Below, in pieces: positions 62,445 to 63,465 of a DNA stretch of 64,000 nucleotides. How positions within the stretch are numbered: the stretch's first letter is position 1; every line of letters starts with the position of its first letter. The position numbers were made by a program, and so were the translations under genes. Source of the stretch: a phage; the NCBI GenBank assembly GCA_036439915.1, contig GCA_036439915.1_3065.1; one strand, given 5' to 3'. The notes under the pieces were generated by a model. The model did not search any database and was not told where the DNA came from. It saw nothing but the letters and a program-made list of their open reading frames with translations.

Positions 62445-62520
62445 TGGTCGAGGCAGTAGGGATCGAACCTACGACCTAGGACTTAGAAGGTCCTTGCTCT
62501 TCCTTCTGAGCTATGCCCCG
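62445..62520 (-). tRNA. tRNA-Arg (UCU)
   Basis: cloverleaf folded by hand; anticodon loop CUUCUAA; T-loop GGTTCGATCC; CCA encoded. Confidence 0.8.
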
Positions 62521-62524
62521 TAAT

Positions 62525-62600
62525 TGGGGTGACCGATGGGAGTCGAACCCATGACTACGAGAATCACAATCTCGAGTTCTACCAACTGAACTACGGCCAC
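62525..62600 (-). tRNA. tRNA-His (GUG) candidate
   Basis: cloverleaf with anticodon loop TTGTGAT, discriminator C, CCA encoded; no encoded G-1. Confidence 0.6.
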
Positions 62601-62715
62601 ATTAATACCTACTCCAACAATCAAGATGTCTTCACACGAAATTAAGAGAAGAGTGATCAGTTCAACCCCTATAATCGCGTCAAGTAGATATTAATGTGAC
62701 AGTTGTCACAAATTT

Positions 62716-62789
62716 GGCGGACGTGATAGGATTCGAACCTATAACCAATCGCTTAACAGGCGATCGCTCTGCCATTGAGCTACACATCC
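62716..62789 (-). tRNA. tRNA-Asn (GUU) candidate
   Basis: cloverleaf; anticodon stem ATCGC/GCGAT, loop CTGTTAA; T-loop TTCGAAT. Confidence 0.65.
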
Positions 62790-62793
62790 AAAT

Positions 62794-62880
62794 TGGTGGG
62801 GAGTGATGGAGTCGAACCACCCGAGTCGTAATGACAATGAATTTACAGTCCACACCGCTACCTCTACGGGATAACTCCCC
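62794..62880 (-). tRNA. tRNA-Tyr (GUA) candidate, type II with long variable arm
   Basis: 87 nt; acceptor GGGGAGT/ACTCCCC; loop CTGTAAA; variable stem GTC/GAC; D-arm imperfect. Confidence 0.5.
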
Positions 62881-62892
62881 TAATTCATAATT

Positions 62893-62967
62893 TGGTGGCC
62901 CTGGGTGGAATTGAACCACCATCTGGCGATTATGAGTCGCTTGCTTGAACCTTCCAGCTACAGGGCC
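62893..62967 (-). tRNA. tRNA-Ile/Met (CAU)
   Basis: acceptor GGCCCTG/CAGGGCC; anticodon loop CTCATAA. Confidence 0.7.
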
Positions 62968-62968
62968 T

Positions 62969-63044
62969 TGGTGCTGATTGACGGAATCGAACCGCCGACC
63001 TTCTCATTACAAGTGAGTTGCTCTACCTACTGAGCTAAATCAGC
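62969..63044 (-). tRNA. tRNA-Thr (UGU)
   Basis: canonical cloverleaf; anticodon loop CTTGTAA; T-loop TTCGATT. Confidence 0.8.
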
Positions 63045-63049
63045 AAAAC

Positions 63050-63139
63050 TGGCGGAGGTGATAGGATTCGAACCTATGAATCGCCGGAGCGACTGCCGGT
63101 TTTCAAGACCGGTGCATTCAACCACTCTGCCACACCTCC
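63050..63139 (-). tRNA. tRNA-Ser (UGA), type II
   Basis: 90 nt; anticodon stem CCGGT/ACCGG, loop CTTGAAA; long variable arm. Confidence 0.8.
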
Positions 63140-63141
63140 AG

Positions 63142-63215
63142 TCTCCATACAAGGATTTGAACCTTGGACCTCCTGATCCCAAATCAGGCGCTCTACCAAA
63201 CTGAGCTACACGGAG
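63142..63215 (-). tRNA. tRNA-Pro (UGG), CCA not encoded
   Basis: anticodon stem CCTGA/TCAGG, loop TTTGGGA; abuts tRNA-Ser as in the T4 Pro-Ser dimer. Confidence 0.75.
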
Positions 63216-63225
63216 TAAATTAAAT

Positions 63226-63299
63226 TGGAGCGGATAATGAGAATCGAACTCACATCATCAGATTGGAAGTCTGAGGTAATACCATTATACGATATCCGC
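63226..63299 (-). tRNA. tRNA-Gly (UCC)
   Basis: acceptor GCGGATA/TATCCGC; anticodon loop CTTCCAA. Confidence 0.8.
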
Positions 63300-63304
63300 A
63301 AATT

Positions 63305-63391
63305 TGGTGCGAGAAGTGGGACTCGAACCCGCAAGGAAATCATTCCGCAGCATTTTAAGTGCTGTGCCTTTACCAATTTGACCATTCTCGC
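63305..63391 (-). tRNA. tRNA-Leu (UAA), type II
   Basis: 87 nt; anticodon stem CAGCA/TGCTG, loop CTTAAAA; long variable arm. Confidence 0.8.
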
Positions 63392-63392
63392 G

Positions 63393-63465
63393 CTGGGAAT
63401 AAAGGACTCGAACCTTTGCATCCTGGAATCAAAATCCAGTGCCTTACCAACTTGGCTAATTCCCA
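63393..63465 (-). tRNA. tRNA-Gln (UUG), CCA not encoded
   Basis: acceptor TGGGAAT/ATTCCCA; anticodon loop TTTTGAT; abuts tRNA-Leu as in the T4 Gln-Leu dimer. Confidence 0.75.

Follow-up and report, generated by a model that had tools for sequence, protein, structure and literature searches.

The tRNA operon of phage T4 reads Gln, Leu, Gly, Pro, Ser, Thr and Ile, then segB, and thereafter Arg, rnaD and rnaC; RNAs C and D are stable and are processed from the same precursors as the tRNAs, and to our knowledge they have been without an assigned function for fifty years. Here we analyse the tRNA cluster in a stretch of 64,000 nucleotides (nt) of phage DNA (GenBank assembly GCA_036439915.1, contig GCA_036439915.1_3065.1), from here on referred to as the window, with emphasis on the spacer between its tRNA-Asn and tRNA-His genes and on the RNA encoded there, called X. 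The cluster likely consists of genuine tRNAs that were known before, and the spacer likely encodes a conserved, structured RNA within the tRNA transcript.

The tRNA content differs among the closest described phages, as T6 adds Tyr to the T4 set and T2L adds both Tyr and Asn while the wV7-type phages have 11 tRNAs. The tRNA-Asn gene of T2L, which is carried together with tRNA-Tyr, contains the preferred cleavage site of SegB (PMC2330249). The tRNA-Tyr of T6 has been seen by northern blot and counters Septu, a defence that cleaves tRNA-Tyr, and the tRNA-rich region of T6 acts as an anti-defence locus (PMC13096335). In gut phages, theta ribozymes have been proposed to work together with tRNA maturation (PMC10879173).

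Structure and conservation of the spacer RNA

The intergenic spacers in the cluster measure 0–12 nt, the gap between tRNA-Asn and tRNA-His alone reaching 114 nt (62601–62714). When folded, this spacer gave a minimum free energy (MFE) of -32.7 kcal/mol (z = -4.4 against shuffled controls) and a structure consisting of a small 5' hairpin followed by X, a domain with both ends paired, built from a closing stem (P1), a long hairpin (P2) and a short hairpin (P3) (Table 1), in which the junction nucleotides ACGCG, CGUGUGAAG and UGGAG are conserved. The original prediction had described a gap of about 115 nt (62601..62715) containing a hairpin, and had proposed it as a place for additional tRNAs or a small stable RNA. 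The long gap is present, base 62715 however being the last A of tRNA-Asn, and the hairpin is found as well, but as a mini-hairpin flanking X, while the conserved RNA is made up of the 95 nt that follow. Of the two identities proposed, the small stable RNA is the better supported, since the spacer holds a conserved structured RNA and is not a tRNA.

Covariation was analysed by applying the proposed structure, with its 37 pairs, to 13 distinct X sequences (alignment A3). Standard pairs were found in 92% of the cells, to be compared with 36–47% when the partners were slid 1–3 columns, and changes on both sides were seen in 12 of the 37 pairs, a number equalled by none of 500 shuffles, which was also the case for the covariation score. 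In the core of P1, the nine inner pairs are paired in all 13 sequences, five of them with compensatory changes, and P3 is paired in every sequence with one pair appearing as A-U, U-A, G-C and C-G across genera. RNAalifold recovered P1, P3 and parts of P2 unaided.

A covariance model built from the 13 sequences gave 107 bits for X in the window and 86–107 bits for the members of the family, while the antisense strands reached ~18 bits. Copies of the Roskildevirus type (Erwinia phage IT22, locus L019, and an IT22-like IMG/VR contig, L024), which were kept out of the model, scored 60–62 bits and have a different, longer domain in place of P2. A strand test, with 67 G.U cells, showed that 91% of the cells pair on the tRNA strand versus 80% on the antisense strand, and the MFE of X is -24 to -27 kcal/mol on the tRNA strand versus -11 to -21 kcal/mol on the antisense strand, making the sense strand more stable by 4–14 kcal/mol. 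X is very probably a selected RNA structure, and at the level of sequence comparison it has been shown to be a conserved structure, specific for the tRNA strand and sited in tRNA operons.

Searches for a known identity of the spacer gave no tRNA call with ARAGORN and no match in Rfam 15, neither at E ≤ 1 over 4 kilobases (kb) nor at E ≤ 10 over 136 nt alone, the only listings being meaningless matches to a plant microRNA and a human long non-coding RNA. A tRNA or pseudo-tRNA was rejected on the absence of a cloverleaf in ARAGORN and of a match to the tRNA model RF00005 at E ≤ 10, and T4 RNA C or D on the location of their homologues at 61819–62079 together with the absence of a blastn match in the spacer. 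The known ribozyme families (hepatitis delta virus (HDV)-like/theta, hammerhead, twister, twister-sister, pistol and hatchet) gave no Rfam match at E ≤ 10. By inspection, an HDV-like fold was rejected for X on account of a single G where the catalytic J4/2 strand belongs, and a hammerhead for the lack of CUGANGA, a G instead of H at position 17 and a G.U instead of A-U at 15.1–16.1.

The spacer has no open reading frame (ORF) on the sense strand. An antisense ORF of 22 amino acids (62626–62694, plus strand) was rejected as coding since it has neither a coding signature nor a Shine-Dalgarno sequence; differences by codon position 1/2/3 number 4/4/0, 6/5/1 and 5/5/1, the codon changes are nearly all non-synonymous, and the frame is cut to 7–8 amino acids in PKO111, unrelated in IT22 and truncated or unrelated in STP4-a. 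An internal promoter or terminator was rejected as well, with 8 consensus sites versus 6.9 in shuffled sequence and none within X on the tRNA strand. Nor did a kissing contact between the loops of P2 and P3 prove better than chance: the complementarity of 4–6 base pairs (bp) in the common type is equalled by 38–54% of the shuffles in three of four type-A variants (91% in Roth01), is borderline (5–7%) in the second type and is absent in the IT22 type. The P3 loop (UCUUGAU or UCAUGAU) resembles the anticodon loops of tRNA-Gln and tRNA-His (UUUUGAU and UUGUGAU) but has C at the place of U33, and this likeness, which may be due to chance, was also set aside.

Distribution and candidate roles of X

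BLAST searches found X in 356–370 phage records, from five genera of Tevenvirinae and a few Vequintavirinae. The identity is at least 95% in the wV7-type Tequatrovirus, ~87% in Karamvirus, ~80% in Jiaodavirus, 78% in the Gelderlandvirus STP4-a and 85–87% in four Vequintavirinae records, e.g. Escherichia phage W70, while in the Roskildevirus IT22 only the 3' third of X aligns by BLAST. X is always located within a tRNA array and on the tRNA strand, and the flanking tRNAs vary: Asn/His in the window, Gln/His in Roth01, Karamvirus and Jiaodavirus, Ser/Arg in teqskov and Gly/Gln in W70, where the copy occupies 2496–2589 of L004. The four Vequintavirinae records are at least 99% identical to each other. 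In STP4-a, X lies between Gln and Asn with no tRNA directly adjacent. The occurrence of X in W70, a phage of a different subfamily, points to horizontal transfer between unrelated phage lineages.

X was not found in the tRNA regions of T4, T2 and T6, and its covariance model finds nothing in that of T4. A pattern scan of 185,579 bacterial and archaeal genomes gave zero matches and pattern scans of IMG/VR and the Joint Genome Institute (JGI) metagenomes gave no new sequence type of X; the IMG/VR pattern matches L011, L012/L014 and L015 were rejected as chance, having 15–16 bits or no score with the covariance model. No feature is marked at X in the GenBank annotations inspected, and no description of X was found in the searchable literature, the X sequence itself included, the coverage not extending to the 10,006 candidate structures in viral RNAs catalogued in 2023 (PMC10690425). 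X apparently represents a family of small RNAs not described before, of the kind "stable RNA in phage tRNA operon".

According to the model that we favour, X would be transcribed as part of the tRNA precursor, and RNase P, in releasing the 5' end of tRNA-His, would generate the 3' end of X. The terminal pair of P1, an A-U that is invariant in 13 out of 13 sequences, directly abuts G1 of tRNA-His, and because of this the cut by RNase P would leave X with a flush, base-paired 3' end. Trimming of the tRNA located upstream would yield the 5' end. With its blunt terminal helix X may then be shielded from exonucleases, so that it would accumulate as a small stable RNA, as do RNAs C and D in T4, and by this analogy the existence of X as a discrete stable RNA is somewhat more probable than its absence.

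X remains intact in phages that have lost tRNA-His, as well as among different tRNAs in a second phage subfamily, and it is therefore favoured as an autonomous, probably trans-acting RNA. We put forward tentatively that X acts in trans, e.g. by serving as decoy or inhibitor in the conflict between phage and host, and protein binding would be its most likely way of doing so. Since X resides in a locus with demonstrated counter-defence activity, a decoy or inhibitor is a reasonable first hypothesis. A wider proposal, in which X founds an undescribed family in tRNA arrays that has been exchanged between Straboviridae and Vequintavirinae and serves as a trans-acting decoy or inhibitor of a tRNA-directed nuclease, or else constitutes a new ribozyme class, is doubtful. 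An autonomous X acting in trans is nevertheless favoured over a helper in cis, a ribozyme and an element that is non-functional or works at the DNA level.

The rival that survives best, and which we regard as unlikely, is that X acts in cis, as an element that helps to process or fold the following tRNA, above all tRNA-His. X lies flush against G1 of tRNA-His in five out of seven lineages (the window-type Tequatrovirus, Karamvirus, both Jiaodavirus types and Roskildevirus), and relative to T2 the two are present or absent together, T2 reading Asn-AATA-Arg where the window has a module of 190 nt (mini-hairpin, X and tRNA-His) between Asn and Arg. Under this explanation a stem extension of six pairs, reaching into the first five bases of tRNA-His, could time or direct the formation of its 5' end, e.g. 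through RNase III or the site choice of RNase P. The sequence GUCAC upstream of P1 can pair either with the upstream GUGAC or with GUGGC, bases 1–5 of tRNA-His, and the latter pairing extends P1 to a continuous helix of 19 bp, which has 92% of its cells paired and is predicted by RNAalifold too. The bases GUGGU or GUGAA are moreover kept 3' of X even when tRNA-His is deleted (STP4-a, teqskov and TB004). Against this, the full structure of X exists without tRNA-His in the same three phages and beside tRNA-Gln in W70, Jiaodavirus and W70 lack the GUCAC that forms the 5' arm of the extension helix, and the variation in this helix is all on the tRNA side, giving no independent covariation. A three-way junction with conserved junction bases also exceeds what a simple processing stem needs.

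The GUCAC arm is most simply taken as a relic of a deleted tRNA-His copy. The arms of the mini-hairpin equal the acceptor strands of tRNA-His, on the 5' side GUGAC/GUGGC and on the 3' side GUCAC, which corresponds to positions 68–72, and we take the arm to be mainly a scar of such a deletion, comparable to the scar GTGAAC found downstream of X in teqskov and TB004, which have lost the tRNA-His located there. Upstream of X in IT22 (L019, ~262–300) the sequence GATGGTTCGACCCCATCTTTAATCACCCCA resembles a degenerate 3' half of a tRNA with a tRNA-His-like end (...TCACCCCA). This would fit with a tRNA-His copy once having been located upstream of X.

The base preceding tRNA-His is a further point in favour of an element in cis. 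When aligned with hisR of E. coli, which has G at position -1, tRNA-His of the window keeps C73 but has T at -1 (position 62601), and T is found in all four phage genera examined, i.e. in the copies of the window, Karamvirus (L006), Jiaodavirus (L003) and Roskildevirus (L019). An encoded G-1 opposite C73 is the major identity element for the histidyl-tRNA synthetase (HisRS) of E. coli. Going by the identity rules of HisRS and the site choice of RNase P, the phage tRNA-His should mature without G-1 and be a poor substrate for HisRS, which raises the separate question of how, or whether, it is charged; one possibility is that the tRNA-His travelling with X follows an unorthodox route of maturation or use.

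As a second rival, X could belong to a ribozyme class not described before and release the end of a neighbouring tRNA by self-cleavage, in the manner proposed for the HDV-like theta ribozymes of gut phages. There is a precedent in the catalytic RNAs that abut phage tRNAs (PMC10879173), the Jiaodavirus X begins one base after the CCA of tRNA-Gln, most lineages end flush with tRNA-His, and the junction nucleotides are more conserved than the helices. The zero matches to Rfam ribozymes and the misfit of the HDV and hammerhead cores, already described, argue against it, as does the fact that E. coli already provides RNase P and the 3' trimming enzymes; X of the window furthermore begins 19–20 nt past the upstream tRNA and is not adjacent to it. 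We find this explanation very improbable. Least probable of all is an X without RNA function, i.e. a decaying pseudo-tRNA, an inverted repeat resembling a miniature inverted-repeat transposable element (MITE), a DNA-level site or the antisense peptide of 22 amino acids, for although the closing stem reads as terminal inverted repeats of 13 bp, X occupies differing positions in tRNA arrays of two phage families and an ATG-started antisense ORF of 16–23 amino acids is open in the commonest sequence type, the complementarity is kept by compensatory changes and by G.U cells that pair only on the tRNA strand, there is no tRNA signal (ARAGORN; Rfam at E ≤ 10) and no flanking direct repeat, the ORF lacks the marks of a coding sequence and the promoter-like sites occur at shuffled frequency.

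Returning to X as an autonomous and stable RNA, some observations weigh against this reading. The excision and stability of X are deduced from its context and from the analogy with T4 RNAs C and D, and no feature in its sequence identifies a partner or target or demonstrates a role as decoy or inhibitor. The ~17 distinct X sequences come from six or seven lineages that are few and related, and the covariation counts are for this reason not independent events, the statistics ignoring phylogeny. The helix P2a (ACGCG/CGUGU) is invariant and never covaries, and two of its six pairs are often broken, the helix being imperfect in Jiaodavirus; the conserved junction may therefore serve something other than this helix. 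Finally, in a tRNA-His without an encoded G-1 an ordinary role is not certain.

The fold of X has been kept by compensatory mutation across at least five genera of Tevenvirinae, and X appears to have reached a phage subfamily unrelated to them. Many phages used in therapy or as models carry X, among them members of the BASEL collection. Phage tRNA regions are now seen as counter-defence loci and a conserved RNA located in one of them is thus a concrete target.

The tRNA cluster and neighbouring genes

When the whole 64-kb window was run through ARAGORN, 11 tRNA genes were called, all on the minus strand within 62445–63465 and none outside, in agreement with the number, strand, outer coordinates, order and all anticodons of the original prediction. 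Chance cannot account for eleven tRNA genes within 1,021 bases. With the Rfam model RF00005, which has a gathering score of 29, ten of the eleven score 53–74 bits, while tRNA-Tyr gave just a match to tRNA-Sec at 30 bits, below the threshold of 47 for that model. In the annotation of ACG-C40, which has a closely related cluster, the tRNAscan-SE scores are 39 for Tyr, 85 for Asn and 73 for His. The Tyr, Asn and His genes, earlier put forward as candidates, are real tRNA genes according to both ARAGORN and the GenBank annotations of near-identical phages. The count of eight tRNAs for T4 was borne out by the T4 annotation, anticodons included, while the view of the cluster as the T4 set plus three needs to be modified: the three extra tRNAs are real, but Arg, Ile(CAU) and Gln diverge from the T4 genes (Table 1). 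The 3' end of tRNA-Pro reads GGAGAC followed by TGGA and CCA is not encoded.

Along its full length the tRNA with the anticodon CAU shares ~82% identity with E. coli genes labelled tRNA-Ile in RefSeq, and it is on these grounds a lysidine-type tRNA-Ile2 and not a tRNA-Met. In T4, the gene occupying this position carries the annotation tRNA-Ile. From its sequence we infer that this tRNA would read AUA after lysidine modification.

Table 1. Position of the tRNA genes, the spacer RNA and downstream features in the window
Feature	Position	Strand	Evidence and remarks
tRNA-Gln (UUG)	63392..63465	minus	ARAGORN; Rfam 67.4 bits; 65/74 vs T4 and T6, 66/74 vs T2
tRNA-Leu (UAA)	63305..63391	minus	ARAGORN; Rfam 53.3 bits; 86/87 vs T4, T6 and T2
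tRNA-Gly (UCC)	63226..63299	minus	ARAGORN; Rfam 65.8 bits; 74/74 vs T4, T6 and T2
tRNA-Pro (UGG)	63141..63215	minus	ARAGORN; Rfam 66.8 bits; 74/75 vs T4, 75/75 vs T2
tRNA-Ser (UGA), long variable arm	63050..63139	minus	ARAGORN; Rfam 63.7 bits; 82/90 vs T4, 85/90 vs T2
tRNA-Thr (UGU)	62969..63044	minus	ARAGORN; Rfam 72.9 bits; 73/76 vs T4; absent from T2
tRNA with CAU anticodon, tRNA-Ile2 (lysidine) type	62893..62967	minus	ARAGORN (label Met); 75/75 vs T2, 47/75 vs T4 tRNA-Ile
tRNA-Tyr (GUA), long variable arm	62794..62880	minus	ARAGORN; 85/87 vs T6, 86/87 vs T2
tRNA-Asn (GUU)	62715..62789	minus	ARAGORN; Rfam 74.1 bits; 75/75 vs T2
Flanking mini-hairpin UGUGAC-AACU-GUCACA	62695..62710 (GTGAC-AACT-GTCAC core 62696-62709)	minus	Fold
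X RNA, 95-nt three-way junction	62601..62695	minus	Fold, covariation, covariance model
X helix P1 (closing stem, 13-14 bp)	62682-62695 paired with 62601-62614		
X hairpin P2, long	62634-62680		
X hairpin P3, short	62616-62630		7-nt loop UCUUGAU
tRNA-His (GUG), T at -1	62525..62600	minus	ARAGORN; Rfam 65.1 bits; absent from T4, T2 and T6
tRNA-Arg (UCU), T2-type	62445..62520	minus	ARAGORN; Rfam 66.1 bits; 74/76 vs T2, 48/76 vs T4
116-amino acid ORF	62076..62426	minus	phrog_3355, E = 6e-53, unknown function; hypothetical in wV7
T4 rnaD homologue (stable RNA)	61964..62079	minus	blastn, two end matches
T4 rnaC homologue (stable RNA)	61819..61957	minus	blastn, 139/139 nt aligned, 98.6%
Terminator-like hairpin after rnaC homologue	61745-61768		

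The 1.1-kb region matches 917 phage records, 327 of which cover at least 80% of the cluster, and the best matches, at 98.4–99.6% identity, are JY01, Sa45lw, NBEco003, wV7, slur phages and several BASEL phages. The same eleven tRNAs are annotated in wV7, JY01, Sa45lw and other best matches as well as in ACG-C40, and the set is already known as standard annotation in wV7-like Tequatroviruses, in hundreds of T4-like genomes; over 300 Tequatrovirus records with these tRNAs annotated are 98–99.6% identical to the cluster. The cluster is a mosaic, with Arg, Ile(CAU) and Gln only 63–88% identical to the T4 genes of the same anticodon; Gln has diverged from T2 as much as from T4, while Gly, Leu and Pro are 99–100% identical to both. 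This mosaic agrees with what has been described for T4 x T2L crosses, in which SegB drives the replacement of the segment.

The locus is probably the tRNA operon of a wV7-like Tequatrovirus, in which the genes are presumably co-transcribed from the minus strand and the tRNAs cut apart by host enzymes. Its backbone resembles that of T2 (Gln Leu Gly Pro Ser ... Ile Tyr Asn Arg) but contains Thr in addition, and the 190-nt module is placed between Asn and Arg. The three tRNAs that go beyond those of T4, Tyr, Asn and His (62525–62880), share a GUN anticodon. GUN anticodons form the queuosine family and, with Asp, also the target set of the anticodon nucleases of colicin-E5 type. During infection these tRNAs may supplement or replace those of the host, both for codon supply and for countering tRNA-cleaving defences, the latter because it has been shown for tRNA-Tyr of T6. 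The related arrays of Karamvirus and Jiaodavirus also carry Asp(GUC), and long spacers occur elsewhere in them; in L003, for example, 96 nt separate His from Ser and 253 nt separate Asn from Asp.

Downstream of tRNA-Arg are homologues of both T4 stable RNA genes, neither of which is covered by an Rfam family. In the rnaD homologue, blastn matched rnaD 4–53 to 62076–62027 at 96% and rnaD 94–118 to 61990–61965 at 92%, the central ~40 nt having diverged from T4. The 116-amino acid ORF, for which no Pfam match was found, sits between tRNA-Arg and rnaD, in a unit that is purely RNA-coding in T4, and is present in T2 and wV7 but absent from T4.

Comparison with known tRNA loci and RNAs

The cluster shares its position, downstream of trna.2-trna.4 and upstream of the e genes, its strand and its gene order with the tRNA clusters of T4, T2 and T6. 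Gly, Leu, Pro and Thr are 96–100% identical to T4, from which the window differs in being without segB, in having other Arg, Ile and Gln genes and in the extra Tyr, Asn, X and His. In Asn, Ile, Tyr and Arg the window is instead 97–100% identical to T2, but it has Thr where T2 has an ORF, and the X-His module has been added between Asn and Arg. When compared to the wV7-type phages nothing notable sets the cluster apart. The tRNA part is in this respect ordinary and its Tyr and Asn genes have already been tied to Septu evasion and SegB homing.

Among structured RNAs, YrlA (a Y-RNA-like RNA) has its 5' and 3' ends paired in a long terminal stem, as does X, and like other tRNA-like RNAs it is found in phages close to tRNA genes. 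The only YrlA matches of the region, however, overlap true tRNAs at 24–26 bits, against a threshold of 69, none of them lying over X, and X is without the T-arm-like GGUUCGAAUCC motif. The HDV-like theta ribozymes are, like X, structured non-tRNA RNAs directly against tRNA genes of Caudoviricetes (PMC10879173). They are minimal double-pseudoknot HDV folds from phages of Bacteroidota and Bacillota, whereas X is a 95-nt three-way junction from phages of Enterobacterales, without a strand for the catalytic C.

T4 RNAs C and D (species 1 and 2) resemble X in being non-tRNA RNAs in the transcription unit of the T-even tRNAs. They differ from it in that no sequence similarity exists between them and X, in that X is located inside the tRNA array and RNAs C and D at its 3' end, and in that other genera and Vequintavirinae carry X, whereas T4, T2 and T6 do not. 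X would be a third non-tRNA product of the T-even tRNA operons, after RNAs C and D.

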